Origin: a bacterium
GTDB lineage: Bacteria; Patescibacteriota; Microgenomatia; UBA1400; UBA12108
DNA: 64,000 bases
Assembly (NCBI GenBank): GCA_043827085.1
Contig: JBDRPO010000022.1
Location: 4,481 to 68,480 of the forward strand
Direction of reading: 5' to 3'
Both the position numbers and the translations under genes were made by a program. The notes below the pieces were generated by a model. It was not told the DNA's origin. It saw nothing but the letters and a program-made list of their open reading frames with translations, and ran no database searches. Numbering within the stretch: the first letter of the stretch is position 1; each line of letters opens with the position of its first letter. This document shows, piece after piece, positions 35,636 through 64,000 of the stretch.

Positions 35636-35642
35636 TTGCCTT

Positions 35643-46203: not shown

Positions 46204-48099
46204 CTATTCCCCACTAATTCTCTTGTACACAAACATCATCGGAGACTCCTCCACAAATTCAAATTTATCTCTCACTTGATCATAAATAGTGATGAGTGTA
46301 TGTTCGCCGATATTTGGTGTGTTTCTATACTCCTCAGCTTGGCGCAGCACCCTTTTGTCCACAAACAAGTATTTAGGCTCCCTGCGGTATAGCTCGATCA
46401 CATCTTTTAGTTCCTGTTTGGTGTAGAGCGTAGCATGTAGATAGTAGTAGTCAGCTAGATTTACTCGCTCGGCCTGCATTAAAAGCACATGGTCAAAGTA
46501 GCCGATGATAGCCACCCGCTCCTTGTTGGGGGTATATTTTTTGATCGCGTCCGCGCTCTCCATGAGCTCTGTGATAGGTATAGTAGGTACCGCTGTGTTT
46601 TCGACCGCTATCAACCTATTCTTTGGCGGGTAATTAAAGTTGGGGTCATACTTCATTAGTCGAAAGTCACTTAGTCGGTGTTTTTCTAGCTTTACTCCCC
46701 ACTGCACAAATTTAGTAAGGGGAAGTGCAAAAATTGCGATCGAGATCAAAACTACGAGCTGTTTGCCATAAGACCGCGTCCACACCGCGCGCACCAAATA
46801 CTGATATAAATAAATCAAAATTATGATCGCTGGGATGCTGACCGCCGCCAAGTCACTTAAGTTTTGCTTGCCCAGATAGTAGCGGAATATACCATAACCG
46901 TAAATAGATAACATAGTCAATACCGGCAAATCTCTTAGTGGTAGTCCTCCCTTGACGTATTTTCGCACCATGACACTCAAGATCACTATGCCGTATATCG
47001 CTATCGGCCAATACGCATACCAGGTTGTTAGTGCCAGGCCTTGACGCTGCAAAAACCCAGCGTTAAATAGTTGAGCGTAGTAATAGTATTGACTCCAGTC
47101 AGGCCATTTAGAGGCTACAATATATGTGTACAAGCTATAGATCGCCATGATAGTACCGGTGTAGCCAACAACCTGTATGCCTTGTCGCACCCCCAGCTTC
47201 CCTCTCAAGTAGGCTATGGTAAAGAGTGCTGCCCAGTAGCTCAAAATCAGTGGGATTCCCGATTCAAGGTTCCACAGTACCCCTACTGCCAGGCTTAGTT
47301 GGAGTAGTCTCCAAGCCCACTTTTTTTGTGTCCTACTCCACCACAAAAAAAGCAAAATCGCAGGCATTGCAGGCAAAAATCTCCACACACTCCCCCCTGG
47401 CCACAAAAAGAACTCCGAGGGAAACAGAGTCGGGAAGACTCCATAAAAATGCACACTAGTCGTCACGACAATCCCGAGTAACGCCAGGGTTTTCGACTTG
47501 GTCAAAACTCGCATAATCAAATACACGGCCATGTACTCGCAGACCCCCATAATCATAGAGATCAAATGCACGTTTGGATGCGAGAAGTACAGTCCAGCTT
47601 TAAAGATCCATGAAGTCAGGAAGATATTCAAAAATCCGTACTGGGCTTTGGTATCTACAAGAAGAATTTTTCCATTTAAAACATCATTGAGTGGTCCAGT
47701 AATAAAATTGAGATGATGATAGTTGTAAAAAAATTGGTAAAAAGCGTTATAACTAAAATTCACCACTAAACCAATAATTATCAAAGTAAAGAAACCTATC
47801 TCTTTCGCTCCTGGCCAGTTGATTTTGCCAGGAGTTTTTGGCCATAGTTTACGTATAGGCTCCAATTTCTCGCGCAAGATTAAATGAAAACCCCTCCACA
47901 ATCCATAAGTTACTGTGGGGATATAGAGTAGCGCTACAGGCCAAAAGTATTTATACGGAGTAAGTGTAACTGTCCGACTAGCTACCCACGGCAAAAATGT
48001 GTCGAGCGTTACTTGGTCAACTATAGGGTAAGGGTAGTTTACCGCCAAATACCAAAAACTCAGTCCCGCCAAGCTTAGTGCCACCAGAAATTTATTCAA
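46204..48099 (-). CDS. Large polytopic membrane protein with a C-terminal soluble domain, unknown family
   Basis: 631 aa. About 12 TM helices, then a ~170-aa hydrophilic tail (NYPPKNRLIAVENTAVP...). Overlaps the upstream gene by 8 nt. Confidence 0.5.
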   Translation of the reverse strand: MNKFLVALSLAGLSFWYLAVNYPYPIVDQVTLDTFLPWVASRTVTLTPYKYFWPVALLYIPTVTYGLWRGFHLILREKLEPIRKLWPKTPGKINWPGAKEIGFFTLIIIGLVVNFSYNAFYQFFYNYHHLNFITGPLNDVLNGKILLVDTKAQYGFLNIFLTSWIFKAGLYFSHPNVHLISMIMGVCEYMAVYLIMRVLTKSKTLALLGIVVTTSVHFYGVFPTLFPSEFFLWPGGSVWRFLPAMPAILLFLWWSRTQKKWAWRLLQLSLAVGVLWNLESGIPLILSYWAALFTIAYLRGKLGVRQGIQVVGYTGTIMAIYSLYTYIVASKWPDWSQYYYYAQLFNAGFLQRQGLALTTWYAYWPIAIYGIVILSVMVRKYVKGGLPLRDLPVLTMLSIYGYGIFRYYLGKQNLSDLAAVSIPAIIILIYLYQYLVRAVWTRSYGKQLVVLISIAIFALPLTKFVQWGVKLEKHRLSDFRLMKYDPNFNYPPKNRLIAVENTAVPTIPITELMESADAIKKYTPNKERVAIIGYFDHVLLMQAERVNLADYYYLHATLYTKQELKDVIELYRREPKYLFVDKRVLRQAEEYRNTPNIGEHTLITIYDQVRDKFEFVEESPMMFVYKRISGE

Positions 48100-50257: not shown

Positions 50258-51933
50258 TGCAAGTCCTTTGCAAGCATCAATTTATCCACGTTGATTAACT
50301 CATACCCGTTCTCAGGCGTATTATGCAAAGTCACAAACGGTCCATCTCCCCGCCCAGTGAGCGGTAAATTGGCTCGTGTATAAAAAGGAACCTCGCGCAA
50401 AAAATGCTCTTCCCACACCCGCTGCCACAAATCATATCCTTCTGTCATCACATCTGTATTGTAAATGGGACTTTCCTGTATGGGCAGATTCTGCAATTCT
50501 GCTATCTCACGTCCTACCAATCGGTGGTGGTTAAAGTATTGGATCATAGTGCGGTAAGACGACCGTAAGGTCAAAACTCCCAGTATCACCATTACCACGA
50601 TGCTAATCTTGTAACTCTTGATCTGCGCAAGTCCAATAGATACAAGTACCACAAGTAGAAACATCCCATAGCCTAACACACGGTTATAGACAAAATAATT
50701 ACTAATTATTAAACGATAAAAAACCAAAAAAACACCAAAAACTAAAATGTATGCACCGATCAATTTTTTCTGCTTGATTTTTGCAAATCCCCATACAGCG
50801 ATGAGTAATAGAGGCAAGCTCACAATCAGGTCAACAATTAGTGGCAAATCCCGAGAATAATTCAGGTTATATATCCCGAGCAGTTCCCATAGTGACCCAA
50901 AGCGGATCCTCTCCCAGCCGATAAAAGTTGTGTTCGTGGTCACTTTGATTAAGCGAATTATTTGGTTTACACTATTTACCATTGTGATCGGAGTTAGTGC
51001 TAAAGCGTAAGAGATACTTATCCAGATATTTTTATATTGAGTAAGCAATAGGGGCAACAGCAACAGCATCATGCCATCTGGATATACCGAGGAGGTGGTA
51101 GCAATAGTTACTCCCATCCACCACGCTTTGCCAGGAGAGTCACCAAGAGCCAAAAGAATTGTCAAAACTATCAGTCCCCCGTAGACAAACTGTGGCATAA
51201 AAGCGTGGAACTGCCAGTACATGAGAGTAGAGTTAAGTCCAAAAAGTAGCGTAGTACCTACTAGCAAGCGTATATCATCGCGTCCCAGTAGCTTTTTGCT
51301 GAGTAAGTAAATTAGCGGCAGGGTCAGCGCTGTCAAAACTGCCAGCAATATCGTATAAACCTGGTATACCTGCTGATGCAAAATCACTGCAAAAAAACTT
51401 AAAGTGAGTGGCACTCCGTACCGAAAACCGTAGTGGAGTATGTCTGCGATAGACCAAGTATATGGGTGCTGCATATCTATTGCACTACCTTGGATCAGGC
51501 TATACTCCCGCAAAAACTCTCCACCACTTGCGTAAGTCACAGGATCTAGATTACCCAGGGACAAGGTGGTGGGGTAGCCAACCTTACCCCACATTGGGTA
51601 AAGATAGAAAACTATCACGCCGGTGACAAAGAGCAGCAAGCGCCAGTCGCTCATTGACCATTTAGAGCTCCACCCATACTTAATTAGCGCAAAAATATTA
51701 ATCAGGCTTGCGCAAAATAGTACGGCGTAGCTCCCGTACTTCATTGGGATATTTGCCAAACTCAAAGCACCAGATAGCAAGACAACTAAGCAAACTCCCC
51801 ACCAAGGCACGCTCCATTTCTCCTTGCGTAGCGGTGTAAGTCTATTTACCCCCCATCCCAGAAACATTAATAACCCCAAAATACCAAGTGTCAATAAACT
51901 AATTTGCAGCATAACTATGATTATACTATCCAT
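50254..51933 (-). CDS. Large polytopic membrane protein, paralog family E. First gene of the minus-strand operon.
   Basis: 559 aa. Shared block as above. An AT-rich divergent promoter region (51934-51979) separates it from the plus-strand PP-loop gene. Confidence 0.5.
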   Translation of the reverse strand: MDSIIIVMLQISLLTLGILGLLMFLGWGVNRLTPLRKEKWSVPWWGVCLVVLLSGALSLANIPMKYGSYAVLFCASLINIFALIKYGWSSKWSMSDWRLLLFVTGVIVFYLYPMWGKVGYPTTLSLGNLDPVTYASGGEFLREYSLIQGSAIDMQHPYTWSIADILHYGFRYGVPLTLSFFAVILHQQVYQVYTILLAVLTALTLPLIYLLSKKLLGRDDIRLLVGTTLLFGLNSTLMYWQFHAFMPQFVYGGLIVLTILLALGDSPGKAWWMGVTIATTSSVYPDGMMLLLLPLLLTQYKNIWISISYALALTPITMVNSVNQIIRLIKVTTNTTFIGWERIRFGSLWELLGIYNLNYSRDLPLIVDLIVSLPLLLIAVWGFAKIKQKKLIGAYILVFGVFLVFYRLIISNYFVYNRVLGYGMFLLVVLVSIGLAQIKSYKISIVVMVILGVLTLRSSYRTMIQYFNHHRLVGREIAELQNLPIQESPIYNTDVMTEGYDLWQRVWEEHFLREVPFYTRANLPLTGRGDGPFVTLHNTPENGYELINVDKLMLAKDLQ

Positions 51934-51979: not shown

Positions 51980-52657
51980 ATGATAAGTAAACAAAAAGTT
52001 AAAGAAGCTCAAAAAATTATTCGTCAAGCTCGCTCTAAATGGGATGATGACAAGATAGCGGTAGCTTGGACTGGCGGCAAAGACTCTACCGTCATCCTGA
52101 GTCTAATCCGTGAAACTTTTAACGGCAAAATCCCCTTTAGAGTCATTTTCAACGACTCGACTATCGAATTTCCCGAAGTATACGAGTTTATCAAAAAAAC
52201 TACTAAGGATTGGAATCTAAAACTCATTACGATTCCTCATTTGCCCGAAGATCTCCAAGCTTATCAAGACGCTGTCTCCCCGGAAGACAAAATGGAAATC
52301 ATGCGGATCGCCAAAATTAACGCGATCAATTATGCGATCACCGAATACAAGCTTCAAGCGTTCATGTCAGGTATCCGCGCCGACGAACACGAATCGCGCA
52401 GCGAAGAAACTCACTTTTCACCACGCACTTCCCACATGCGTGTCCACCCAATTCTCAATTTTACCCTTACTGATATTTGGGACTACATCAAAGAATTTGA
52501 AGTTCCCTATGTCAAGCTCTACGACCAAGGCTATAAATCGCTTGGAGAAGCACCTTTTACGAGTCCTGTCTCAGATCCCAATGCTCCCGAACGAGCGGGA
52601 AGGGAGGCCACCAAAGAAAAAACCATGAAACGTCTGCGTGATCTCGGTTATTGGTAA
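51980..52657 (+). CDS. PAPS-reductase-fold PP-loop protein (PF01507-like) lacking the redox cysteines
   Basis: WTGGKDSTV PP-loop, RADEHESR, ILNFTLTDIWDYI and YDQGYKSLGEAPFTSPV align with the CysH/CysD family. The family's QGY.SIGC.PCT cysteines are replaced here (C to E, C to F), and there is no C-terminal Cys pair. Confidence 0.7.
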   Translation: MISKQKVKEAQKIIRQARSKWDDDKIAVAWTGGKDSTVILSLIRETFNGKIPFRVIFNDSTIEFPEVYEFIKKTTKDWNLKLITIPHLPEDLQAYQDAVSPEDKMEIMRIAKINAINYAITEYKLQAFMSGIRADEHESRSEETHFSPRTSHMRVHPILNFTLTDIWDYIKEFEVPYVKLYDQGYKSLGEAPFTSPVSDPNAPERAGREATKEKTMKRLRDLGYW

Positions 52658-52666: not shown

Positions 52667-54178
52667 ATGTACAAAAATCTTGTCATTATCTCCATCGATT
52701 CTCTCCGTGCCGATGCCACCAACTTTTCTCACCAGGCAATTCATGGTCGTGCAGAACCACGACTTAAAACTCCCAACCTAGACAAGCTCGCAGGTCAAGG
52801 CTCATACATAGAAAAAGCTTATTCCACCAATACCTATACCACCGCTGCTCACGCTTCCCTCTTTACCGGCCGTTACCCTTACCAACATCAAGTCCGGGCC
52901 TTCCTTGATTTCCACAGCACTTTAAATCCCACAACACCTACCCTTGCTGAGATTCTGCACAATCAAGGTTTTCAGACATTTTTTTATTCCGATGTCCCAG
53001 AATTATTTTCCTCAAACGACATTTGGCGCGGTTTTAGAGTCAAAACTAAAAATAATACTAACTGGTTCTTTAACTCACTAGAAGAAGCCAAGAAAGACCG
53101 GAATTTTATCTTCCTCCACCTTTTTGATGTTCACGAACCATACTTATATATCGAAGATCAAAACCACAAACCCAATGCCAATGACGATTACTACGACTCA
53201 GTGACAACCCTGCAGAAGAAACTGGGATATAAATCCAAATTGAATCCCAAGAAAAATCCCCACGATTTCTGGCAAGAAATTCGTCAACATTTTCGCGCGG
53301 AGCATCTCAAAGAGTATCCTTATCTTTACCCCCTGTATCTTGCGGGAGTAAATTACTTTGATAAATACCGACTGCCATATTTTTTGAATCAATTTGACCA
53401 TCTGGGCTACACTAGTGACAATACTCTCTTCATTTTCCTGAGTGATCATGGCGAAGGACAAACCACTTTCGATACCAATAATATTATTAAATTTAATCAC
53501 GGGGGTGACATTACCGAAGACGTTCTCAGAATATTTCTGACTATTTCTGAGTCAGGTATTAATCGCAAGCTCATGTCCATCGCCGATCTCTCTAATCTAG
53601 CATTGTCTTTACTAGGAGTCCCATACCCCAAACCAATTGAATATTCACTCAGCCGCGCCGTTATTCCTCCGCATCATCTTTACGCCGAATCACACTACAA
53701 TATTGTCGGCGACAAACTGGCTCATGGATTAACTGATCAAGGTACTCTCGCGCAAATTACCTCACACGTCTTGGGTAGCCGGGCATTTATCACCGATTCT
53801 CACAAATATATTCTTCATGGTGAGCCGGAATACCTCGCCTCTTCCCATTCAACCGAACCTGCCAGCGTCGTGATTGATCGCTTATTCCAGTCTATCTTCT
53901 ATCGATTTTCCGATTCGACTTCCAAGAAATCATTACTCGGCGCCCATGCTCATTCTCCACTTGAACCCGATGCCCTTGCGTACAAACTTCTGATTTCTCC
54001 CGAAAAAACTCTCAAGCCTTTTACCGAAAGCTTTGAAACTACCGACCTAGCTGATCATCCAATTGACGACACGTCCTGGACAATCCAAGCCAAATTTCAT
54101 TGGCTATCTGCTCTCACAACCCACGTCCTCCATCCCCGCCGTCATTATCGTTTTTCCAAACTAATCAATAATTACTGA
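52667..54178 (+). CDS. Alkaline-phosphatase-superfamily phosphodiesterase/pyrophosphatase (ENPP type I phosphodiesterase-like), with a ~150-aa C-terminal extension
   Basis: Metal site ISIDSLRAD. Thr nucleophile block TNTYTTAAHASLFTGRYPYQHQ matches the ENPP pattern T-x3-H-x-S-x2-TG-x-YP-x2-H. HLFDVHEPY and FLSDHGEG second-metal motifs. Not a Cys/Ser-type sulfatase, because the CxPxR motif is absent. Confidence 0.65.
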   Translation: MYKNLVIISIDSLRADATNFSHQAIHGRAEPRLKTPNLDKLAGQGSYIEKAYSTNTYTTAAHASLFTGRYPYQHQVRAFLDFHSTLNPTTPTLAEILHNQGFQTFFYSDVPELFSSNDIWRGFRVKTKNNTNWFFNSLEEAKKDRNFIFLHLFDVHEPYLYIEDQNHKPNANDDYYDSVTTLQKKLGYKSKLNPKKNPHDFWQEIRQHFRAEHLKEYPYLYPLYLAGVNYFDKYRLPYFLNQFDHLGYTSDNTLFIFLSDHGEGQTTFDTNNIIKFNHGGDITEDVLRIFLTISESGINRKLMSIADLSNLALSLLGVPYPKPIEYSLSRAVIPPHHLYAESHYNIVGDKLAHGLTDQGTLAQITSHVLGSRAFITDSHKYILHGEPEYLASSHSTEPASVVIDRLFQSIFYRFSDSTSKKSLLGAHAHSPLEPDALAYKLLISPEKTLKPFTESFETTDLADHPIDDTSWTIQAKFHWLSALTTHVLHPRRHYRFSKLINNY

Positions 54179-55454
54179 GATAATGCTTCCCTGCATATAG
54201 TATCTCCAGGTTTTTTGGCTTTTCACATTGTTCATTTATTCGCACTCCTACTGGATAACTCATCATGTTAACGAGTTGCCCAACTCCCGTCGCCCAAAGT
54301 TCGTACTCTCCCATCCCAGTGAGGCATAAGGTATCGTATTTACTCCAATCATATTTCTCGACCACTTCTTTCTGGTACTGCTCCGCGGCCTGCACTCCCC
54401 GTGCCGAAAACGAATTTATCACCCACTGAGACCTGGTTGTAACTGACATATAGATTGCCAGTCCTAGGAGTAACCATCTCTCCCTCTTCCCCCCCGCGAT
54501 CATCAAACATACCCCTATCAAACTAAACTCCAGGTAAAAAGGCAACGCTCTACCTAGGAAATAAAAGGGGAGTAGCCCGACCGCTCCCCACCAACAAGCG
54601 AACCGAAACAATTGTCTGTTCTTTCGCCACACGTTCCACACAGCTAACCCCACAAGAATAGCAAACGACACACTGACCAAGTCGTAATACGAATGAGGAG
54701 GGTAGGGCATCCCCATCTGCCAGCCATGGCGCCAGTTGATGAGCCACAACCCATAATCAAATAAATTCTTCCGCAGAGTCTCTAAGTTAATAACATAGCT
54801 GTAGGCTGCTCCTTGTTGGCGGTACTGTCCCAATTTCAAAAAAAAATATATTATCGTTGGTACCCAATAAACCAAATAATACTTCCAACGAACCCTCTTC
54901 TGCCAAAGAATGTAACTCAGCACCAAAAGTACACTCACAAAACTTTCTTTACTAAACATCGCCAAAATAAATAATCCCCAGCTAGCAATAAACCATTCTT
55001 TCTGATACTTCGATACTTCGAAGTATCGAAGTAACAACAAAATAGATCCAAGTGAGAAAAGTAAAAATACTTGATCCACCAGCCCAGTGAGAGTGAACAC
55101 ATCAAAAAAGACGATGTGCGACACACCGTAGGTTACCGCCGCGGCGACTGCTCCCCATTTCGCTTTGCTTAGACCTTTCGCGAGTAGATACACAAGTATG
55201 ACGTTTAAGCCGTGGAGCACTATTGGTACCCAATGCATTGCACTAATATTGTTTCCTAAAAGGTGGTAGATAGAAAATAGTGAGAAGGGGATCGGTCGGT
55301 ATGTCCCTCCGATATCTGCAAATAACTCTCTGACTCGTCCCCAGCCACCCGGGGCGCTCATATACAGCCAAATATCATCTCCCCCCACAAAATAATGGGT
55401 AAACCCACTATAATAAAGGAGTATGAAAGCGAAAAGTCCTGTGATTATCCACAT
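54165..55454 (-). CDS. Polytopic membrane protein, paralog family C (DD motif)
   Basis: See 11289..12665. Contains an internal 28-nt perfect palindrome at about 55006-55033. Its 5' end overlaps the 5' end of the divergent 55423 gene by ~32 nt. Confidence 0.5.
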   Translation of the reverse strand: MWIITGLFAFILLYYSGFTHYFVGGDDIWLYMSAPGGWGRVRELFADIGGTYRPIPFSLFSIYHLLGNNISAMHWVPIVLHGLNVILVYLLAKGLSKAKWGAVAAAVTYGVSHIVFFDVFTLTGLVDQVFLLFSLGSILLLLRYFEVSKYQKEWFIASWGLFILAMFSKESFVSVLLVLSYILWQKRVRWKYYLVYWVPTIIYFFLKLGQYRQQGAAYSYVINLETLRKNLFDYGLWLINWRHGWQMGMPYPPHSYYDLVSVSFAILVGLAVWNVWRKNRQLFRFACWWGAVGLLPFYFLGRALPFYLEFSLIGVCLMIAGGKRERWLLLGLAIYMSVTTRSQWVINSFSARGVQAAEQYQKEVVEKYDWSKYDTLCLTGMGEYELWATGVGQLVNMMSYPVGVRINEQCEKPKNLEILYAGKHYLSNY

Positions 55455-57027
55455 ACTCCAAATCTTATCATTCCTGCTCGTACCTTTGTTCGTTTACTTA
55501 TTCATCGTGAACTCTTCACTCTCCGCCGTGGGGCCGTATGTCGGCACCTACTCCCCCTCCGACGAGGAAACCAATTATCTAACTGCTCTGTCAGTTTACC
55601 GTGGCGAGGGACTATACAAAAATTTTAGTATTTCCTATCCCCCCGGCCGCTTCCTTGCTCAGGCACTATATTTCCACTTGACTCAGCCCACCATCATTTC
55701 AGCCAGGATTTACATGAACCTCTTTGCTCCGCTCTTATTCCCCACACTGCTCTTCTTTTTGACTTACCGTGTTCTTCGTGTCCTCAAACTCAGTTTCTTC
55801 CCTGCCTATCTCCTAGGCTGGCTCGCGCTTCTACTGGACCTAACCATAGTTCACTCTGCGCAAGAAGTGCACGCACTCATCGCTGGATTTTGTCTAGTTT
55901 TGTTATCGCGGCTAAAATTCCATCAATTTTTCTTAGGTTTACTCTTGGGACTCATTTTTCTCTTCCGTTTCGAAGCCGGAATTATCGTCGCTCTCTCGCT
56001 CATCCTAGCATACCGCTCACCGCCCTCTAAACAGAATATCCTTGGTTTTGGGGTTGTTTGGCTCCCAGTCCTCGCTAACCTACTCTTTCATGGCACTCTC
56101 GCCAACTTTTTTTATGACACCATTGTTCTCGGTCTCATCATGCAGCCTCGCGTCATGGGCCAGCCAATTCCCCCCAATGCACTCTGGTATGTTTTTCTCT
56201 CCTCGCTCCTTGCGCTGTTCGGTTTCACCCTCTCCCTCGCGGCCCACTCCAACAAATCATTACGCACCGTAGCGGGTATCGCCTTATTTAGTTATGTCTC
56301 CGCCCTAGGTCGCTCAGACGAGGGACACTTATGGTACGCTCTCCTTTGGCTCCCCTTACTTATAAGTTATTCCCTTACCCAGCTGGACCGTATTCGCCTC
56401 CTACCCACAATCTTTATTGGCTTAGGTTTATTTGCAGCCTGTTATCTCATTATCGTTGTAAAATCTCCTGCCTTATTTCTGTCCATTGCGGCGATCATGC
56501 TGCTCTTGGCTGACCGCCTAAAGTCGTTTTCCCGTGAGATCACACTCGCAGGCATTATTACCGCTCTCCTCATTTTCCACAGCTTTCAGTACTTCACTCT
56601 CCGTTTCCAGCTTCCCCGTTATGTTGGTACTCTCGCCCACCCTTGGACTCAATCCGCCTCTGGCGGATCGATTGGCGGACTCGATTTCCCTTTCTCAACT
56701 CTCACTTCACTCTTGGAAATTAAATTACATATTACCGGCAACTCTCCCTCGCTCTTTATCTTCCCCGAAAATACTATTTATTATGAATACTTTAAATTGC
56801 CTCGTCCCACCCGCTATCTCTATCTCACTGGTGAGCGCACAGCGGGAACCGAAACCGAGATTATCCTCGATCTAGAATCAACCCCCAACCTCTACATTCT
56901 GGTCTTCCCCGTCAAAGCCGCTCATCGCGGGGGTGAAGTTTGGTCCTGGATAGAGTCCCACACGGAAGTTATCTACTCTGCTCCCTACCAGTCCACGACC
57001 GTTGAGCTGCGTCATTCATCGCTTTAG
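55423..57027 (+). CDS. Polytopic membrane protein with a C-terminal soluble domain, GT-C-like (SDEETNYL loop motif)
   Basis: 534 aa. About 11 TM helices. Acidic DEE motif in the first loop. C-terminal ~110-aa hydrophilic domain. Start uncertain because of the divergent overlap. Confidence 0.45.
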   Translation: MKAKSPVIIHILQILSFLLVPLFVYLFIVNSSLSAVGPYVGTYSPSDEETNYLTALSVYRGEGLYKNFSISYPPGRFLAQALYFHLTQPTIISARIYMNLFAPLLFPTLLFFLTYRVLRVLKLSFFPAYLLGWLALLLDLTIVHSAQEVHALIAGFCLVLLSRLKFHQFFLGLLLGLIFLFRFEAGIIVALSLILAYRSPPSKQNILGFGVVWLPVLANLLFHGTLANFFYDTIVLGLIMQPRVMGQPIPPNALWYVFLSSLLALFGFTLSLAAHSNKSLRTVAGIALFSYVSALGRSDEGHLWYALLWLPLLISYSLTQLDRIRLLPTIFIGLGLFAACYLIIVVKSPALFLSIAAIMLLLADRLKSFSREITLAGIITALLIFHSFQYFTLRFQLPRYVGTLAHPWTQSASGGSIGGLDFPFSTLTSLLEIKLHITGNSPSLFIFPENTIYYEYFKLPRPTRYLYLTGERTAGTETEIILDLESTPNLYILVFPVKAAHRGGEVWSWIESHTEVIYSAPYQSTTVELRHSSL

Positions 57028-58274
57028 TATTGCCGCACAAACTCACTTAGTGTCTTGAGTACATACTTCATCTGCGGCGCCCCAATGCCGGGAAACACTC
57101 CCAGCCAGAAAGCCTGATTCATCACAATGTCGGCATTAGTCATCTCACCCATCACTCGCTTATTCTCGACCCGCAGATAGGCTGGGTGGCGGAGAAGATT
57201 CCCAGAGAAAATATTTCTAGTTCCCACTTTATGTGCTTCCAGGTATTCTGTGACATCATTACGTGAGAAAGGAGCTTCTTTCTGGACAATAATCGGGAAG
57301 CCAAACCAACAGGGTTTAGTACCCGCCGGCTCTTCAATAATTTTAAATAAGATGGGATATTGCACAAAGAATTTTCTTAAAGTCGCGTAATTAGCTCGTC
57401 TACGCTTGATGAAATCGGGTAAACGCCTGAGTTGTGCGATTCCAATCGCTGGTCCAAAATCAGTGAGCTTGAGGTTATATCCAATCATCGAGTAAATATA
57501 CTTGTGATCATAGCCGTATGGGAGCTCCCCGAGCTTCCACTTAAATCTGCGCCCGCAGGTATTATCCTTCCCCGTATCGCAGTAGCAGTCGCGCCCCCAG
57601 TCACGAAACTGGCGAAGGCAGCGGTGGATCAGGGGATTATTGGTCACGACCGCACCACCCTCTCCCATGGTGATTTGGTGTGCCGGGTAAAAACTGTAAG
57701 TTGCGATATCGCCAAAGGTCCCGACCAGTTGCCCGTTGTGGGTCGAGCCCAGTGCGTCGCAGCAATCTTCGATAATCCACAGTTGATATTTTTTCGCCAA
57801 TTCTTTGATTTTGTTTATGTTATAGGGGATACCGAGCGTGTGGGCTACCATGATGAGCTTGGTCTTAGGACTGATCGCCGCTTCGATTTTCTCCACGTCG
57901 ATATTTAATGTAGTTAAATCTGCGTCCACAAATACAGGCGTGAGTCCATGTTGAATCCCAGGATTAACTGTCGTGGGAAACCCAACCGCACAGGTAATGT
58001 ATTCATCCCCAGGCTTAAGCTGACGATCTCCAAAAACTGGTGAAGTGAGTGCCGCGAGTGCATTCAAGTTCGCGCTCGACCCGGAATTGACGAGTGTTAC
58101 GTACTCGACTCCCAAGAATTTCTTAAACTCACTCTCAAACTTTTTTGCCCATCTGCCCTCCGTCCACCACCCATCACGAGCCGCCTCGATAGCGTTATCA
58201 ATTTCTTCCTGCCCAAATACTTTTCCCGATACCGGCACATAAGTTTCACCAGGGACAAATTTTAGCTTACTCAT
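57024..58274 (-). CDS. ddhC: CDP-6-deoxy-D-xylo-4-hexulose 3-dehydrase (E1, DdhC/RfbH/AscC), DegT/DnrJ/EryC1 family
   Basis: N-terminal signature VPVSGKVFGQEEIDNAIEAARDGWWTEGRWAKKFE. [2Fe-2S] motif C-x-C-x7-C in DCYCDTGKDNTCGRRF, with an upstream Cys in EDCCDALG. 416 aa. Confidence 0.8.
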   Translation of the reverse strand: MSKLKFVPGETYVPVSGKVFGQEEIDNAIEAARDGWWTEGRWAKKFESEFKKFLGVEYVTLVNSGSSANLNALAALTSPVFGDRQLKPGDEYITCAVGFPTTVNPGIQHGLTPVFVDADLTTLNIDVEKIEAAISPKTKLIMVAHTLGIPYNINKIKELAKKYQLWIIEDCCDALGSTHNGQLVGTFGDIATYSFYPAHQITMGEGGAVVTNNPLIHRCLRQFRDWGRDCYCDTGKDNTCGRRFKWKLGELPYGYDHKYIYSMIGYNLKLTDFGPAIGIAQLRRLPDFIKRRRANYATLRKFFVQYPILFKIIEEPAGTKPCWFGFPIIVQKEAPFSRNDVTEYLEAHKVGTRNIFSGNLLRHPAYLRVENKRVMGEMTNADIVMNQAFWLGVFPGIGAPQMKYVLKTLSEFVRQY

Positions 58275-58317
58275 ATCAATTTATTATACACGAGCAAATA
58301 AGCTGTATAATTCTCCT

Positions 58318-60462
58318 ATGGTTATCCGTACTCCCAAGCGTATACATTTGTCTTTTGTTTCCCTCGTGACGCTCCTTGTCTCAATCATCTTGACAGGATT
58401 CATCATTGCCTTTGTAAAATTCTATTATCCCTTTGGGAACCAGCCCTTCTTTACTGTTATCTACATGTGGTGGACCAGAATGGCTTATCTTCTCTGTCTC
58501 GTGCTCGTCCCGCTTTATGCCTGGTTCATTTGGCGTGTATTACACCGGTACACTCGTCCATCTAAAACCATCACATTGATTTATTACGTGCTTAGCGGAC
58601 TTGCTTTTGTTGGGCTCCTTGCTTACATTGCCAAACTTGACTTGACTTTGTTTTATCATTGGTCCTCCGAAAAAGTCGCGATCTACTCAGACTGGAAGAC
58701 TCATGCCGTTACTCTAGGTTTTGCCGCCCTCATCCTTGGCTTCTACCGGAAACGTTCGTCTATTTACTCTTTTCTCTCTCATTCATTGACCAAAATAATT
58801 CTTGTCATTATGGTCGTCATTTCACTGTACCTAGCCAATTTTGCTCTCCTCAATGATAATCATCGCTACAATGCCAACGGATTAAATTTTAGTGTTGTCA
58901 TGCACCCAGCTGTCCAAGTTTACTATGGCAAAGCCGTACTGATTAACCAAAAAACTCAATATGGTCTCTACGCCCAACTCCTAGAGCCAATTTTTCATTT
59001 AATGGGAGGTATCAGTGTCTTCAAGTTTAGCCTTATTATGGCCATACTTATTTGTTTATCACTCCTTGCGATCGGCTTTTTCCTGCTCCTATCTGTTCAC
59101 CCAGTCTTTGCTTTAGTCGGGTTTTGTGCCACCATCTACTTCCATTATTTTGCCGGTACCCTCTGGCCTCACGAGCTTTACTATCAGTACTATCCCATTC
59201 GTACTATTGTCCCCACCTTGACATTGCTCTTTAGTACACTCTACTTCCGCACTCCCACCCAAAAGAAATTTTTAGCCATGCTGGTTTTCCTCTCCCTCGG
59301 CATTATCTGGAATCTTGATGTCGGTCTCTTTGCCTTTGGCGCTTTTGTCATCGCTGTCTCTTACCAATACCTTTTTCTCTCGGAAAATGTTTTTTATAAA
59401 CTTCGCCGGCTATTTAGTACTTGGTTTCTCTCAGGTCTAATCTTTACTCTTGTTTTTGGCGCTTTTTTGCTATATTTACGCCTTCGTTACCATGCTGTGC
59501 CTTCTCTTGAAATGTTTGTTTCGGCTCAAAAACTCTTCCTGAGCGGTCAGTTCCCCGTCCTCTTTCGTTTATGGACCATCATTGTGCTGATTTATCTTGC
59601 CGGTTTGATAAATTCCGTCAAAAATCTCGTCTTGAATCGTCCGTCCGTCAACCACACGATGATCTTTTTCACTACTATACTTGGTCTGGGCATTTTCACT
59701 TATAGTATCAACAATCCCCATGACTCCGTACTAACCAATTGTGGTTACCCTGCGCTTATCGTGCTAGTCCTTCTTGTTCATGAAACTCTCCAGGAATGGG
59801 GAGAGGAAGCCAGGCTTCGCTACCGCTCGCTTTTCCAATACAAATTTATTGTTCTCTCACTACTCATTATCTCATTTTTAGGGACTGCTTTCTTTGTCAA
59901 TCTGCGCGGGAGTACCCTCGTGCGAGACGCGATCACTATCGAAGATTTAATTCATCCTCGCCCCGGTAATATGGAAACTGCCTGGGATGCTAAAGGTGAA
60001 ACCGAAAAAATTGTGGATTTTATTACGATAGGTGATCTCTATCTCGATCCCAGCCTGACTCCGAGCTGGGTCAACAAAGCCAACTTTGCTGCCCGCTACG
60101 CTCTCCCAAATGGGGCCATTCGCGACGATCTCTTGATCCTTTCCAATTGGGAATACCTGCTTTATCTCAAAGCACATGCCAAAAGCCCTCTAATTTCCGT
60201 TAATTTTCGTCATCTGTTTCTCGTTAACGAATGGCAATCTTTATTTGATCAGCTCAAAAACCGTCAAGATCGCTATGTCCTCGTCGAAGACGAATGGGGT
60301 CTTTTCCAGGGTGAACTCAAAAATCATCCCAATGAGTACATCGCCAAAATCGAAGAACTTTTAGCCGCCAACTATCACCCAATCGAAAGAGAAATTGTCG
60401 GCGATAGTTGGTATGATGATCGCTGGTATCCCAGCGTGATGATCATGTACGAACGCAATTAA
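58318..60462 (+). CDS. Large polytopic membrane protein with a conserved C-terminal ~200-aa soluble domain, paralog family F
   Basis: 714 aa. The C-terminal IEDLIHPRPGNMETAWDAKGETEKIVDFI ... DDLLILSNWEYLLYLKAHAKSPLISVNFRHLFL ... YHPIEREIVGDSWYDDRWYPSVMIMYERN is homologous to the C-terminus of 63312..64000(-). Confidence 0.5.
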   Translation: MVIRTPKRIHLSFVSLVTLLVSIILTGFIIAFVKFYYPFGNQPFFTVIYMWWTRMAYLLCLVLVPLYAWFIWRVLHRYTRPSKTITLIYYVLSGLAFVGLLAYIAKLDLTLFYHWSSEKVAIYSDWKTHAVTLGFAALILGFYRKRSSIYSFLSHSLTKIILVIMVVISLYLANFALLNDNHRYNANGLNFSVVMHPAVQVYYGKAVLINQKTQYGLYAQLLEPIFHLMGGISVFKFSLIMAILICLSLLAIGFFLLLSVHPVFALVGFCATIYFHYFAGTLWPHELYYQYYPIRTIVPTLTLLFSTLYFRTPTQKKFLAMLVFLSLGIIWNLDVGLFAFGAFVIAVSYQYLFLSENVFYKLRRLFSTWFLSGLIFTLVFGAFLLYLRLRYHAVPSLEMFVSAQKLFLSGQFPVLFRLWTIIVLIYLAGLINSVKNLVLNRPSVNHTMIFFTTILGLGIFTYSINNPHDSVLTNCGYPALIVLVLLVHETLQEWGEEARLRYRSLFQYKFIVLSLLIISFLGTAFFVNLRGSTLVRDAITIEDLIHPRPGNMETAWDAKGETEKIVDFITIGDLYLDPSLTPSWVNKANFAARYALPNGAIRDDLLILSNWEYLLYLKAHAKSPLISVNFRHLFLVNEWQSLFDQLKNRQDRYVLVEDEWGLFQGELKNHPNEYIAKIEELLAANYHPIEREIVGDSWYDDRWYPSVMIMYERN

Positions 60463-60483
60463 GATGTTAAAATATCTCTGAAT

Positions 60484-61422
60484 ATGGTCAATAACAAAAA
60501 GTTAATCTCCATTGTGGTTCCCGTTTACAACGAAGAGGCCGTCATCCCCGAACTGCTCAAACGTTTAACTCAATTTATTTCTTTTTCTTCTCTCTATCGT
60601 TACGAAGTGATTTTTGTCGAGCACGGTTCGCGAGATCGCTCTTTCGCGCTTCTCAATCAAGCTACCAAGCGTCACGCTTACTTCAAAATCCTCCGCCTCG
60701 CCAGGAACGTCGGAGCTGACGGAGGCATTGTTGCCGGTATGCAGCACGCGGCAGGCGATGCCTGTGTCATCCTCATGGCTGATCTCCAGGAGCCGCCCGA
60801 GCTGATTGCCAAACTCGCCGAAAAATGGGAAGAGGGATATGGGATTGTCTACGGTTTAGTCAAAAAACGCACCGCTGGTATAGTCCGCAACTTTAACTCT
60901 CGCCTGTTTTACAAAATCATCAACTTAATGACCGGTAATATGTTCCCCGAAAATGCCTCCGACTTCCGCCTCATGGACCGACCTGTTTACGAAGTCGTTG
61001 CTCGCATGAAAGAGCACAACAAATACTTGCGCGGCCTCGTCATGTGGACTGGCTACCCCAGTATCGGCGTCCCCTTTGACCGCGCCCCGCGCTTTGCCGG
61101 TACTCCCAAATCAGACCTCAAAACTGTCCTCAAAGTGGCGAGTAACGGTATCTTCTCCTTTTCTTACGTTCCACTTCGCCTAGTCTCGACCCTCGGTATC
61201 TTCATGACACTGGTTTCGTTTGTCTTGGGTTTGATCTATCTCTATCTCTTTATCTCCGAGGGTAGGACAGCTCCAGGTATCACAACCGTCATCCTCTTGA
61301 CCCTGATTCTTTTTGGAATCCTGTTCTTTGTCCTCGGCGTCATCAGCGAATACCTCGCGCGGATCTACGAAGAAGTCAAAGACCGTCCACCGTACCTAGT
61401 CAAATCCAAAACCAATCTCTAG
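60484..61422 (+). CDS. Polyprenol-phosphate glycosyltransferase (GtrB/ArnC/CsbB-like GT2 with two C-terminal TM helices)
   Basis: ISIVVPVYNEEAVI ... VIFVEHGSRDRS ... LMADLQEPPE ... RLMDRPV, then two C-terminal TM helices (IFMTLVSFVLGLIYLYLFI and VILLTLILFGILFFVLGVI). 312 aa. Confidence 0.8.
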   Translation: MVNNKKLISIVVPVYNEEAVIPELLKRLTQFISFSSLYRYEVIFVEHGSRDRSFALLNQATKRHAYFKILRLARNVGADGGIVAGMQHAAGDACVILMADLQEPPELIAKLAEKWEEGYGIVYGLVKKRTAGIVRNFNSRLFYKIINLMTGNMFPENASDFRLMDRPVYEVVARMKEHNKYLRGLVMWTGYPSIGVPFDRAPRFAGTPKSDLKTVLKVASNGIFSFSYVPLRLVSTLGIFMTLVSFVLGLIYLYLFISEGRTAPGITTVILLTLILFGILFFVLGVISEYLARIYEEVKDRPPYLVKSKTNL

Positions 61423-63278
61423 TTTGACTCTGTCAATGTCTTGTCCCTATCCACTGTCGGGATAATCATATTGGCATTAAACTCATCTCTTGGTAAAAGA
61501 GGCGATAGGTCTTCGATCGGGTTACCAAACGTCAATTTGGGCTCTATTTTCTGGTCAGGTTTCAGCATCACTTGTACAAGACATGGTCCCTTTTGCGCCA
61601 GTGCCCAGCGGATACCCCGCTTTAGTTTTTGGTGATTATTGATCATTTTCCCAGGTATTCCGTACACCTTGGCCAGCTTAATAAAGTCTGGATTACAGAC
61701 CCCGGTGGTAGCATCAGTCGCAATATAGTGATTATCTAGATATAATTCCTGGAACTGTTTGATAATCCCGTATCCCCGGTTATCCAAGATAAATATTTTG
61801 ACCGGTAATTTTTGGATCGAGAGGGTCTGCAATTCCTGCACATTCATCTGAAAGCTCCCATCCCCGTCGATGCAGATTACTTCTTTCTTCCCGAGCGCGA
61901 CCGAGGCTCCGATTGCCGCCGGGAAAGCGTATCCCATCGGGGAATTGCCGAATGCCGAGAATAAGCGCTGTCCCTGTTTTAGCTTGAAAGACTGCATGAT
62001 CCAGGTCAAATGTCCTCCATCGTCGGGGATAATCACCGCATCTTTCTTCAGCTCTTGTGAGAGCATCTCTCCAAAAACATAAGGGTTGACGTACTTCTTC
62101 TGCTTAAAGTGGATCTTTTGCACCGTCGGATACTTTTTCTTCCACGCCAAGGTTCTGGCTAACCAAGCTTTAGTGTTGGGCAAACGTTTCAGATACTTGG
62201 GAGCTTGTTTGATCATCTCGCGCAAAAATTCCTTGGCGTCACACTCGATCTCTAGCTTTGGAGTCAGCCCACGCCGCTTCGCCAGCTCGCCTTGGTCAAT
62301 GTCCACCATGATGATCTGCGCGAGTCTGGCAAAGGTTTCCGGTCTCCCTCCTGTTTGGCGGGTATCGAGGCGTGATCCTACGGACAAAATCGCATCGGCG
62401 TTTTGAACAGTAAAATTGGCCGCTCTGGTTCCATACACACCATGACATCCTATGAGTTGCTGATGCTCCCAGCCAAAGCTATCCAGTCCGCTCCACGATG
62501 TCACCACCGGGAACTTCGTGAGCTTTGTCAGCTGATGGACTTCTCTTATCCCATCCGCTAGTCTGATTCCTCCTCCAGACAGTAATACCGGCCTCTCCGC
62601 CTTCACAAGTATCTCCCAAGCTTGTTTGACTTTTTCTCTGAGTTTACTGCCGGTGTCACGGTAGGGAAGGGTAGTGGGAGTAGCAAATGACTTCATCCTC
62701 TTTGGTTCGCAAGGAACACGCTGAAGGTCCATGGGGATATCTACTAGGACTGGTCCAGGTCGTCCAGACTTGGCCATGTACACAGCTTTTTCTAATTCGT
62801 AGCGGACATCCTCCAGCTTACCTATCTTAACCACGTACTTGGTTAGTGGTTTGACGATACTCACAATATCTGTTTCCTGGAAACCAATTTGGCGGGAGTT
62901 CTCTGTTCCCGGCATGCCGCCCTTCTGTTCGTAGGTATTTACCTGCCCTGATATATATAGTGTTGGAATACTGTCAAACCACGCACACCCCATCCCAGTG
63001 ATCAAATTGGTCGCACCCGGTCCCGAGGTCACCATACAAGCCGACAGTCCCGGACCCAAGCGCGAGTAAGCTTCTCCCATCATGGCAGCGCCCTGCTCGT
63101 GATTGACAGGCACATACTTAATGTCTTTCCGGCCATAGAATGCATCCATCACAAAGGCGATCGCCCCGCCCGTAACCACAAACACTTCCCTCACTCCTTG
63201 GCTCACCAAAAAATCCAAAATATAGTCGTTGACTTTATAAACTTGCTTCTGCTTGGTCATGAATCTTTCTCCCATCAT
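61419..63278 (-). CDS. Thiamine-diphosphate-dependent enzyme, acetolactate synthase large-subunit-like (candidate YerE-type sugar-nucleotide branching enzyme)
   Basis: N-terminal Pyr domain VREVFVVTGGAIAFVMDAF ... SGPGATNLITGMGCAWFDSIP. C-terminal ThDP-binding GDGSFQMNVQELQT. 619 aa. Convergent with the GT2 gene (4-nt overlap). Confidence 0.7.
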   Translation of the reverse strand: MMGERFMTKQKQVYKVNDYILDFLVSQGVREVFVVTGGAIAFVMDAFYGRKDIKYVPVNHEQGAAMMGEAYSRLGPGLSACMVTSGPGATNLITGMGCAWFDSIPTLYISGQVNTYEQKGGMPGTENSRQIGFQETDIVSIVKPLTKYVVKIGKLEDVRYELEKAVYMAKSGRPGPVLVDIPMDLQRVPCEPKRMKSFATPTTLPYRDTGSKLREKVKQAWEILVKAERPVLLSGGGIRLADGIREVHQLTKLTKFPVVTSWSGLDSFGWEHQQLIGCHGVYGTRAANFTVQNADAILSVGSRLDTRQTGGRPETFARLAQIIMVDIDQGELAKRRGLTPKLEIECDAKEFLREMIKQAPKYLKRLPNTKAWLARTLAWKKKYPTVQKIHFKQKKYVNPYVFGEMLSQELKKDAVIIPDDGGHLTWIMQSFKLKQGQRLFSAFGNSPMGYAFPAAIGASVALGKKEVICIDGDGSFQMNVQELQTLSIQKLPVKIFILDNRGYGIIKQFQELYLDNHYIATDATTGVCNPDFIKLAKVYGIPGKMINNHQKLKRGIRWALAQKGPCLVQVMLKPDQKIEPKLTFGNPIEDLSPLLPRDEFNANMIIPTVDRDKTLTESN

Positions 63279-63311: not shown

Positions 63312-64000
63312 TTATTTTTCGTTTCTCTCCCACGTACTTATGTAATTGACTTGCCACTGCCAGCCGTAGTATTCCTCGCCCACCAACTCACGCTCAATTA
63401 CGTGATAATTATTGCGAATCTCCCGCCACAGTCGCTCTACCATTTCCTTCACATGACTCTTTTCTCCTCCCACAGTGATGAGTTGTTCTTCGTCAACGAT
63501 CAGGAGTTTACTTTGCCTCCCAGCAATATGGGTAAACAACTCCTCCCACTCACTTGGTAGTGCCAAATGACGGAAATTCACCATGGGTAACGGAGCTCTC
63601 GCTCTCGCGTGCAAATATAGCAAATAATCCCAATTAGATAATATGAGCACGTCATCGCGAACTTCCCCCATGTTCAATTTGTATTCGTCAGCGTATTCCG
63701 CTTTCTTTACCCAAATGGGTTTTAAGCCACGGTCGCGCGCCAAATCACTTTCATAGACAAAATCGATACCGGTAGCTGAGCCTCTATGTATTCCCCAGAG
63801 TGACTTGGCACTTTTTGTCTCGGGTCGGACCACATCTTCAATGGTAACCGTGTCTCCTACTAGCCGGCTGTAGCGCAGGTTTTGCACTGAGCTGGCCGCC
63901 ATCAAACAAAGTAAACCCACCCCCATCCATCCCGGCCACCAAAGTTTCTTTTGCCTCCATGCTCTCTCTACGAGGAGGGTAAGCAGAATTATTGCCGGGT
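63312..64000 (-). CDS. C-terminal part of a family F membrane protein. The frame stays open to the window edge, so the N-terminus lies outside.
   Basis: TIEDVVRPETKSAKSLWGIHRGSATGIDFV ... DDVLILSNWDYLLYLHARARAPLPMVNFRHLAL ... YHVIERELVGEEYYGWQWQVNYISTWERNEK matches the C-terminal domain of 58318..60462. No in-frame stop upstream of the first Met through nt 64000. Confidence 0.5.
   Translation of the reverse strand, partial: PAIILLTLLVERAWRQKKLWWPGWMGVGLLCLMAASSVQNLRYSRLVGDTVTIEDVVRPETKSAKSLWGIHRGSATGIDFVYESDLARDRGLKPIWVKKAEYADEYKLNMGEVRDDVLILSNWDYLLYLHARARAPLPMVNFRHLALPSEWEELFTHIAGRQSKLLIVDEEQLITVGGEKSHVKEMVERLWREIRNNYHVIERELVGEEYYGWQWQVNYISTWERNEK

Follow-up and report, generated by a model that had tools for sequence, protein, structure and literature searches.

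A predicted gene cluster for an acyl-branched 3,6-dideoxyhexose in a Patescibacteria genome

The window analysed here is a 64-kb stretch (64,000 nucleotides) of a Patescibacteria (Microgenomates-like) metagenome-assembled genome (MAG). Close to its end stand a gene for a sugar 3-dehydrase of the E1/DdhC/RfbH type and a gene for a YerE-like carboligase that depends on thiamine diphosphate (ThDP), with genes for a membrane protein and a family 2 glycosyltransferase (GT2) between them. We propose that a cluster for making an acyl-branched 3,6-dideoxyhexose, similar in type to yersiniose, erwiniose or caryophyllose, has its distal half in this region, and we put the probability of this reading at about 0.72. 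Sequence, structure prediction or genomic context gives the identity of the E1, the membership of the ThDP enzyme in the YerE-like group, the probable type of the GT2, the GT-C fold of the membrane protein and the conserved linkage of these genes. The E1, ThDP and GT2 genes lie where an original prediction had placed them; that prediction overlooked the 714-amino-acid (aa) gene between E1 and GT2, which adds a GT-C step to the route. The genes concerned are as follows.

57024..58274, minus strand: E1/DdhC/RfbH, a CDP-4-keto-6-deoxyglucose 3-dehydrase dependent on pyridoxamine phosphate (PMP) and a [2Fe-2S] cluster, 416 aa (NF011936, PDB 3bcx, conserved His and Cys)
58318..60462, plus strand: polytopic membrane protein with a predicted GT-C fold, 714 aa, ABII21_04385 (AF2 and Foldseek; synteny in loci L001 and L090)
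60484..61422, plus strand: GT2, probably of the polyprenol-phosphate glycosyltransferase type (GtrB/ArnC/PgfS-like), 312 aa (Pfam Glycos_transf_2; PgfS and ArnC alignment)
61419..63278, minus strand: YerE-like ThDP carboligase, open reading frame (ORF) of 619 aa (TPP_enzyme_N/M/C, PDB matches, tree)
63312..64000, minus strand: second GT-C-family paralogue, ABII21_04400, 667 aa, with its C-terminal third in the window and running on to ~nt 65,315

A 3-dehydrase with no E3 reductase found nearby

On sequence grounds, the product of 57024..58274 is a true E1/RfbH 3-dehydrase. It matches the Pfam family DegT_DnrJ_EryC1 (E=1.9e-91), scores 624 bits against the NCBIfam RfbH equivalog NF011936 (cut-off 423) and aligns over residues 5-412 with the Yersinia E1 structure PDB 3bcx (E=4e-148). 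The Schiff-base lysine is replaced by His220, which lies in YPAHQ here and in YPAHH in Yersinia E1, the H220K mutant 3bb8 reading YPAKH. Also conserved are Cys193, within EDCCDALG, and Cys251, Cys253 and Cys261, which make up a C-x-C-x7-C motif within DCYCDTGKDNTC; all four align with the cluster cysteines of Salmonella RfbH and Yersinia E1. We take the [2Fe-2S] ligands to be numbered C193, C251, C253 and C261, in the motif C-x57-C-x-C-x7-C. The RfbH signature and the C-x-C-x7-C motif that the original prediction read from this protein are thus borne out by the equivalog score, the histidine and the full set of cysteines.

What was not found in the cluster is an E3 (DdhD) reductase. When six-frame ORFs of the window and of a set of related loci were searched by BLAST with Salmonella RfbI, none matched at E<=1e-4; the search reached at most 10 kb to each side of the ThDP gene and so covers the cluster and not the rest of the genome. 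Two further loci (L088 and L089) hold no E3-type ferredoxin or ferredoxin-NADP reductase (FNR) protein in their Pfam gene tables, and an Azospirillum plasmid locus has no E3 among its annotated features. An E3 gene "just downstream" is therefore rejected for the cluster, though not for the genome. Nor is this peculiar to the window: 16 genome loci with a full-signature E1 (e.g. L078, L061, L029 and L020), together with the window, L001, L088 and L089, all lack an E3 homologue in the locus, and E3-less E1 clusters appear to be common. Many E1 proteins of the loci searched keep all of the Fe-S ligands, so the classical E1/E3 pairing is not a feature of such clusters.

With no E3 encoded nearby, electrons must come from a non-dedicated reductase acting in trans. 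In other words, either a general ferredoxin or flavodoxin reductase must serve the E1, or an E3 must be encoded elsewhere in the genome. SpnQ-type homologues of E1 work without a dedicated E3. SpnQ is similar to the window enzyme in being an E1-like 3-dehydrase with an Fe-S cluster whose cognate reductase gene is absent from the cluster, but its substrate is a TDP-sugar and its pathway that of a polyketide.

A YerE-like ThDP enzyme

The protein encoded at 61419..63278 contains the TPP_enzyme_N, M and C domains. Across the family alignment both HEQ, with the catalytic Glu61, and IDGDGSF...LDN, the latter containing the Mg-ThDP motif GDG...N(N), are invariant. NCBI protein MFH2085995.1 is 100% identical to it, with a start six codons later (613 aa), and is encoded on a 69,945-bp contig. 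Judged by its relatives, the enzyme belongs to the YerE-like group and is not an acetolactate synthase (ALS). Among solved structures it matches 8rph (377 bits) and 5ahk (312 bits) best, the latter presumably the PpYerE structure, followed by a plant acetohydroxyacid synthase (AHAS; 282 bits). 8rph is JanthE, a YerE-like enzyme from Janthinobacterium (PMC12188165), and a structure of PpYerE has been solved (PMC12247030).

In a neighbour-joining tree with 100 bootstraps, a single clade (100/100) takes in the window protein together with 18 members of its family and both JanthE and PpYerE and leaves four AHAS outside, the outgroups being few (Arabidopsis AHAS, Salmonella IlvG and two IlvB). Grouping with JanthE and PpYerE and falling below all ALS cut-offs, the enzyme thus does not cluster with IlvB, nor with IlvG or the plant AHAS, and its phylogeny agrees with the original prediction. 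The window protein and PpYerE have in common the loop GQVNT[YH]E.KG...RQ.GFQE.D, for which the AHAS counterpart is GQVPRRMIGTDAFQE. A C-terminal extension is shared with both JanthE and PpYerE. JanthE itself differs from the window protein in two respects: it has CDG in place of the canonical GDG, and it groups with a second paralogue found in loci L003 and L004 rather than with the window protein.

The opposing explanation sees mere coincidence in the position near E1: the enzyme would be a normal acetolactate synthase, a normal acetohydroxyacid synthase or some different 2-oxo-acid enzyme. Its top NCBIfam match by score is indeed biosynthetic ALS (TIGR00118), and its identity to AHAS, 31-34%, is barely under that to the YerE-like structures. 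However, the TIGR00118 score is 440 bits against a cut-off of 538, other ALS models score far lower and every ALS cut-off is missed. No ilv gene and no ilvN-like small-subunit gene adjoins the ThDP gene, whose neighbours encode the GT2 and GT-C membrane proteins, so that the original description of a 619-aa ALS-like protein without ilv context holds, all three domains included. The tree sets the enzyme apart from AHAS with full bootstrap support, and the position of Arabidopsis AHAS Trp574, which we take to be the acceptor-specificity residue, is Phe here (QFQELY). Finally, linkage to a sugar 3-dehydrase is kept across phyla, and we regard a coincidental ALS as very improbable. Sulfoacetaldehyde acetyltransferase (Xsc) was also considered, because genes resembling 3'-phosphoadenosine 5'-phosphosulfate (PAPS) reductase and sulfatase lie nearby; it was rejected at 237-252 bits against cut-offs of 620-676.

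Linkage of the ThDP family to 3-dehydrases

A scan of GTDB genomes found 333 relatives of the ThDP enzyme. The closest of these, 57-64% identical, belong to Roizmanbacteria and Gottesmanbacteria, and others occur in further Patescibacteria, Pelagibacterales, Gammaproteobacteria MAGs, Woesearchaeota, Elusimicrobia, Bdellovibrionia, Pirellulales and a cultured Paenibacillus. A plasmid collection contained no YerE-like relative, only ordinary ALS at ~34% identity. Related loci, taken to at most 10 kb on each side of the ThDP gene, were translated in six frames and compared with reference proteins. Among 80 loci with family members, 16 have a full-signature E1 and 23 a ColD-like His-type 3-dehydrase, and of the 44 loci that span 15 kb or more, 25 contain a His-type 3-dehydrase of either kind. 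The linked loci come from the candidate phyla radiation (CPR), SAR11, Bdellovibrionia, Elusimicrobia and Paenibacillus. The core of the original prediction, that an E1 and a YerE-like enzyme are paired here for a C-branched 3,6-dideoxyhexose, is supported by this linkage together with the JanthE/PpYerE clade.

Compact operons of E1, ddhA, ddhB and the ThDP gene are found in Paenibacillus (L078), Bdellovibrionia (L061), Elusimicrobia (L059) and Pelagibacterales (L022), and contain glycosyltransferases besides but no further metabolic gene. Going by the gene neighbourhoods, the context of the ThDP gene is that expected for an enzyme that would branch an NDP-4-keto-3,6-dideoxyhexose. Because the arrangement of E1, membrane protein, GT2 and ThDP gene recurs in a relative (L001/L002, proteins 60-82% identical) and the ThDP-E1 pairing recurs across phyla, chance does not account for it.

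The 23 DegT proteins of the ColD-like loci keep the catalytic His and lack all of the Fe-S cysteines; examples are L011, L015, L018, L024, L025, L028 and L053 in Pelagibacterales and L036 and L039-L041 in CPR. ColD-like 3-dehydrases need no reductase. C-branched 3,6-dideoxy sugars are therefore probably made in SAR11 as well, along a route that does not depend on a reductase.

Some clusters of the family look more elaborate. A second ThDP paralogue, ~40% identical to the window protein and grouping with JanthE (99/100), lies in the same cluster in a Roizmanbacteria locus (L003:11082-12941) and a Patescibacteria MAG (L004:4035-5933), followed each time by a short-chain dehydrogenase/reductase (SDR) gene; these organisms may make two branched sugars or perform two branching steps. 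In L088, whose ThDP enzyme is 66% identical to that of the window, the N and C halves of a split transketolase (12835-14579) stand between GT2 and E1; located upstream are genes for another ThDP enzyme, two SDRs and a NeuB-like protein. By its gene content, this locus encodes a different and more elaborate sugar chemistry.

Syntenic relatives and the genes beyond the window

Within the window, all ORFs of 150 aa or more were scanned with Pfam and yielded no NTP_transferase, CDP-glucose 4,6-dehydratase or E3, and BLAST with Salmonella RfbF, RfbG and RfbI found no homologue of ddhA, ddhB or ddhD. Nor does any gene for a YerF-like reductase stand close to the ThDP gene on the window side. The closest syntenic relative, L001/L002 (ThDP enzyme 73%, E1 78% and GT2 82% identical), offers a view of what may lie beyond. 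Its gene order is a PAPS-reductase-like gene, a sulfatase-like gene, three membrane proteins, E1, a 705-aa membrane protein, GT2 and the ThDP gene, then a 692-aa membrane paralogue, a class-I aminotransferase (AT), an SDR, aspartate-semialdehyde dehydrogenase (ASD), homoserine dehydrogenase (HSD) and aspartate kinase (AK), and finally a 415-aa protein, a ddhB-like gene and a ddhA-like gene. In L089 (an 897-kb contig) and L008 (Gottesmanbacteria), ddhA, ddhB, AK, HSD, ASD, SDR, AT, the ThDP gene and E1 form one block.

The original prediction had looked for the other ddh genes downstream. That expectation stands for ddhA and ddhB, whose counterparts lie ~10 kb past the ThDP gene in the syntenic relatives, and fails for ddhD, which was found at no related locus searched. 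In L001, L008 and L089 the ddhA-like protein best matches TIGR02623 (277 bits, cut-off 300) and the ddhB-like protein TIGR02622 (208-220 bits, cut-off 278). A candidate branch reductase, an SDR of 289-311 aa, is encoded within ~5 kb of the ThDP gene in L001, L007, L008, L012 and L089.

The window's own continuation can be followed for a short distance. The ORF at 63312 has its frame open up to nt 63998, and its full length was taken from P0248 and L090. L090, a Logan contig identical to the window, stops 39 nt upstream of ABII21_04400, at ~nt 65,355. JGI metagenomes contain no exact match to a 34-mer taken from the end of the window. One further gene may be linked to the window in a different way: the accessions MFH2085993, 995 and 996 track the locus tags 04385 to 04400, and from such sequential accessions the ASD MFH2085542, on a 14,332-bp contig and 80% identical to the ASD of the L001 cluster, would be encoded by the same MAG.

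Probable delivery through a lipid carrier

The GT2 gene directly adjoins the ThDP gene in the window, L001, L003, L088 and L089, and the GT2 proteins of the window, L003 and L004 loci are 60-82% identical to that of L001. The GT2 domain occupies residues 9-170 (Pfam Glycos_transf_2), the protein can be aligned over its full length with both PgfS (220 bits against a cut-off of 500) and ArnC (162 bits against 529), and two hydrophobic segments (~229-259 and 262-294) are located at the C-terminus. Apart from a Met for the first Asp of its motif MADLQEPP, these segments and the motif are as expected of GtrB/ArnC/DPMS-type enzymes. The GT2 probably loads the sugar onto polyprenol phosphate, the role that the original prediction gave to a GtrB-like enzyme.

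Its neighbour, the 714-aa membrane protein, has no Pfam or NCBIfam match and only 19 database relatives. An AF2 model of it (pLDDT 84, pTM 0.86) was compared with the PDB by Foldseek, and the top 15 hits are all GT-C proteins, whose fold joins a polytopic N-terminal module to an extracytoplasmic domain, among them ALG12, AftA, ArnT, STT3, DPY19, PglB and Pmt4. Iterative HMM searches found no link between this protein and the PMT_2 proteins of the window; its paralogues there lie at 63312 onwards and at 46204-48099. According to the model it is likely a GT-C glycosyltransferase, and it is predicted to use a polyprenol-phosphate-linked sugar. The probable GT2 type and the GT-C-fold neighbour together support a route in which a CDP-sugar gives a polyprenol-phosphate sugar that a GT-C enzyme transfers outside the membrane, and export from CDP-sugar by way of polyprenol phosphate to a surface acceptor is likely.

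The ArnC/ArnT and GtrA/GtrB/GtrC systems similarly place a polyprenol-phosphate GT2 gene beside a gene for a GT-C membrane transferase. Unlike the Gtr system, the window has no GtrA-like flippase identified beside its GT2 and GT-C genes. Unlike both systems, its GT-C protein comes from a small family without a Pfam model, its GT2 scores below the cut-offs, and its sugar would be CDP-activated.

A proposed pathway and the points against it

In the pathway that we infer, including each chemical step, the nucleotide, the donor and the acceptor, ddhA- and ddhB-like enzymes, encoded outside the window and placed here by synteny, would make CDP-glucose and then 4,6-dehydrate it. The E1, with PMP and its [2Fe-2S] cluster, would remove the 3-hydroxyl to give a CDP-4-keto-3,6-dideoxyhexose. 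The YerE-like enzyme would then decarboxylate a 2-oxo acid and add the acyl-anion equivalent to the C-4 ketone, which would create a branch at a tertiary alcohol, and an SDR, in relatives encoded just past the window's end, would reduce the branch ketone. Once complete, the sugar would be moved by the GT2 from its CDP carrier to polyprenol phosphate and flipped, and either the GT-C protein of 58318-60462 or its paralogue at 63312 onwards would hand it to a surface acceptor. The chemistry follows the unifying scheme that has been published for acyl-branched sugars (PMC9306805). There, an acyl group derived from a 2-oxo acid is added to CDP-4-keto-3,6-dideoxyglucose by YerE-like enzymes and a YerF-like reductase acts next (PMC9306805, PMC12247030).

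The nearest precedent is yersiniose A of Yersinia pseudotuberculosis, made by DdhA-D, YerE and YerF. Both systems have an E1 with the same His and four Cys; here a YerE-like ThDP gene lies 3.1 kb from E1, and ddhA- and ddhB-like genes and an SDR are present in the syntenic cluster of the relatives. The differences are that no E3/DdhD was found here, that the ThDP enzyme is only ~34-36% identical to YerE-like structures, that the donor is perhaps not pyruvate (the readings being roughly level), that delivery apparently uses polyprenol phosphate and a GT-C enzyme rather than passing the nucleotide sugar directly into the O-unit, and that the host is a CPR bacterium.

Several observations count against the proposed pathway. 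The ThDP enzyme is 36% identical to JanthE and 34% to PpYerE, compared with 31-34% to AHAS. YpYerE, ErwE and MMAR_2332 were not among the sequences of the tree, and the physiological substrate of JanthE is not known (PMC12188165). The ddhA, ddhB and branch-reductase genes lie outside the window, their presence in this genome being deduced from synteny with relatives. The E1/E3 pair in its classical form is incomplete, with E3/ddhD not found in the window or the related loci searched. Nineteen of the 44 large loci have no 3-dehydrase in the stretch covered, at most 10 kb on each side, so the family is not tied exclusively to that acceptor. The GT2 is under both the PgfS and the ArnC cut-off, and its motif MADLQEPP (residues ~97-104) has the first Asp of DxD replaced, as in its closest orthologues; GtrB/ArnC/DPMS-type enzymes usually carry DADLQxPP. 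The TM-scores behind the GT-C assignment are modest, 0.22-0.48, at match probabilities of 0.99-1.0.

Which 2-oxo acid supplies the branch

Given a branched-sugar pathway, the donor has to be a 2-oxo acid, for which there is more than one candidate. We hypothesize that in this subclade the donor is 4-hydroxy-2-oxobutanoate, made from aspartate through AK, ASD, HSD and the class-I aminotransferase, which would give a 3-hydroxypropanoyl branch and, after reduction, a 1,3-dihydroxypropyl branch. This is our first guess, a tentative one that falls short of even odds, and it stands roughly level with plain use of pyruvate. In the window's ThDP subclade (96/100 bootstrap), AK, HSD, ASD and AT genes are interleaved with ddhA, ddhB, the ThDP gene, SDR and E1, and the set is kept together in several orders (L001/2, L003, L006, L007, L008, L009 and L089) with no ThrB or ThrC nearby. 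The aminotransferase is linked to the ThDP gene in ~20 loci and is absent from the plain E1-ddhA-ddhB-ThDP operons. The ASD 80% identical to that of the L001 cluster points the same way, if its placement in the MAG of the window is right.

Published YerE-like clusters provide a precedent, as they encode their own donor supply (PMC9306805). ErwE accepts 4-hydroxy-2-oxobutanoate in vitro and rejects pyruvate, and in these clusters the donor is made by cluster-encoded enzymes such as the aldolase ErwI with ErwJ, and MMAR_2331 (PMC9306805). The erwiniose, caryophyllose and gastriose clusters (ErwE/F/I/J; MMAR_2331-2333; MyGE) have in common with the present one a 3,6-dideoxy-4-keto sugar, a YerE-like carboligase, a reductase and cluster-encoded donor supply (PMC9306805). 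There, however, a pyruvate aldolase makes the donor, whereas no aldolase was seen in window-type clusters and the window's subclade has the class-I aminotransferase with AK, ASD and HSD instead. Transamination as a donor route is mentioned in the literature only as a biocatalytic option (PMC9306805). The proposed C3 branch would fall between those of yersiniose (C2) and erwiniose (C4).

The homoserine-derived donor also has evidence against it. The AK, HSD, ASD and aminotransferase genes are all outside the window, the trio is absent from the L004, L012 and L030 loci over at most 10 kb on each side of the ThDP gene, and the assignment of the aminotransferase to homoserine is putative. In another Gottesmanbacteria genome (L092), an ACT-less AK-HSD-ASD trio is followed by a ThrC-like PALP gene in what is a housekeeping operon with no ThDP gene; the linkage seen in the clusters may thus reflect shared ancestry among related CPR genomes. 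We know of no sugar with a 1,3-dihydroxypropyl branch. The aspartate kinases, ~298 aa long, lack the ACT domain in L001 (2697-3596), in L089 (2670-3563) and in the Thr-type operon of L092 (8074-12961), and a Saccharibacteria genome has the usual ACT-containing form. Loss of the ACT domain was considered as a sign of a dedicated role and rejected, since the same kinase occurs in the housekeeping Thr-type operon.

The simpler possibility is a yersiniose-type pathway: pyruvate would donate a two-carbon branch, an acetyl group that becomes 1-hydroxyethyl on reduction, and the nearby amino-acid genes would serve housekeeping functions with no bearing on the sugar. For YpYerE the donor is pyruvate and the acceptor is precisely what E1 and E3 produce (PMC9306805, PMC12247030), and PpYerE and JanthE both accept it (PMC12247030). 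More distant family members sit in operons without a donor-supply gene, and the AK-HSD-ASD trio is known as a housekeeping operon in CPR. This does not sit easily with the tight linkage of the aminotransferase in ~20 loci, nor with the position of the trio between ddhAB and the ThDP gene in the window's subclade, and some YerE-like enzymes, ErwE among them, reject pyruvate (PMC9306805). We consider the pyruvate donor possible but doubtful. The yersiniose-like product of the original prediction therefore survives as to the kind of sugar, whereas its two-carbon pyruvate branch is not our best guess, given the amino-acid genes in the subclade clusters.

A third use of the aminotransferase, after branching, would convert the branch ketone to an amine and yield an amino-branched sugar. 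Reductases, transaminases or oxygenases modify acetyl branches in some secondary metabolites (PMC9306805), and no gene is linked to the ThDP gene more often than that of the aminotransferase. Its best matches, however, are α-amino-acid aminotransferases of the AspAT type and not DegT-type sugar aminotransferases, an SDR able to reduce the same ketone is present in these clusters as well, and the AK-HSD-ASD trio would be left unexplained. We judge an amino-branched product improbable.

Returning to the homoserine-derived donor, a fuller version of that hypothesis is that CPR bacteria of the Microgenomates type make an undescribed 3,6-dideoxy-4-C-(1,3-dihydroxypropyl)-hexose with no dedicated E3, its donor supplied by the aminotransferase and by an AK-ASD-HSD module whose kinase would be insensitive to feedback, and displayed by way of polyprenol phosphate and a GT-C enzyme. 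We put this forward as a conjecture that is open to considerable doubt.

Predicted branched sugars in the candidate phyla radiation

Acyl-branched deoxysugars are rare and strongly antigenic surface components, and the ThDP enzymes responsible for them are of interest as catalysts in making chiral tertiary alcohols. The original prediction regarded such sugars as rarely reported outside a few proteobacteria, a view that is out of date: acyl-branched sugars and YerE-like enzymes have been described in mycobacteria, Rhodopseudomonas and Spirochaeta, and more than 200 are predicted (PMC9306805, PMC12247030). The pathway would be of a familiar type; what is new is the host and perhaps the kind of branch. 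The locus takes the YerE-like family beyond enterobacteria and mycobacteria into ultra-small, uncultured Patescibacteria and, by homology, into SAR11, Bdellovibrionia, Elusimicrobia and Woesearchaeota.

Three predictions can be tested: that the E1 works without a classical E3, that the sugar is delivered on a lipid carrier with a new GT-C family, and that the subclade uses a homoserine-derived C3 donor. If true, this would be the first acyl-branched sugar predicted for CPR, with a new logic of donor supply that relies on transamination and not on an aldolase. The cultured Paenibacillus strain in the family (Paenibacillus sp. CGMCC 1.60098, L078) is a possible experimental handle. A 64-kb window given over to glycan genes points to heavy investment by CPR bacteria in unusual surface glycans, which bears on the attachment of episymbionts to their hosts.

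Neighbouring genes and the wider island

Four genes on the other side of E1 keep the same order beside it in L001 and L090.

51980-52657, plus strand: PAPS-reductase/CysD-like protein, 225 aa (domain match)
52667-54178, plus strand: sulfatase/alkaline-phosphatase-like protein, 503 aa (domain match)
54165-55454, minus strand: membrane protein without a family
55423-57027, plus strand: membrane protein without a family

Nothing ties these neighbours to the branched sugar; they are syntenic genes only. The PAPS-reductase-like and sulfatase-like pair is kept beside the E1 block in relatives and may hint at sulfation or phospho-modification of a glycan. A CysQ/HisN-like phosphatase gene adjoins the ThDP gene in L089.

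The window as a whole is a glycan-gene island, with GT2, GT4 and GT-C/PMT_2 glycosyltransferases, an ABC-2 exporter, a Wzx-like flippase and numerous large membrane proteins that match no family. Five consecutive membrane proteins at 42180-51933 (minus strand; 741, 543, 631, 721 and 559 aa) have no Pfam match, and the 631-aa member (46204-48099) is paralogous to the protein with the GT-C fold encoded at 58318-60462. Unclassified GT-C-like genes seem to have expanded in this island. Tandem paralogues are also found among two 448-aa GT4 genes (39513-42202, plus strand) and two genes for ~365-aa proteins (34532-36737, plus strand) with weak matches to AZOBR_p60025 "cell surface glycopolymer formation", of which a third copy lies at 2913-4019 (minus strand).

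At the other end of the window (2-1764, plus strand), a GDP-mannose 4,6-dehydratase gene (gmd) is cut by the window start, the fragment still scoring 381 bits, and is followed by a 316-aa SDR. The pair indicates a second pathway, predicted to be for a GDP-6-deoxyhexose, in the same island. It was considered as a source of the keto sugar for the branched-sugar pathway and judged unrelated, being a gmd and a generic SDR 56 kb off. Each 2-kb bin of the window has a negative GC skew (C>G, plus strand), with values between -0.09 and -0.27, regardless of gene strand.

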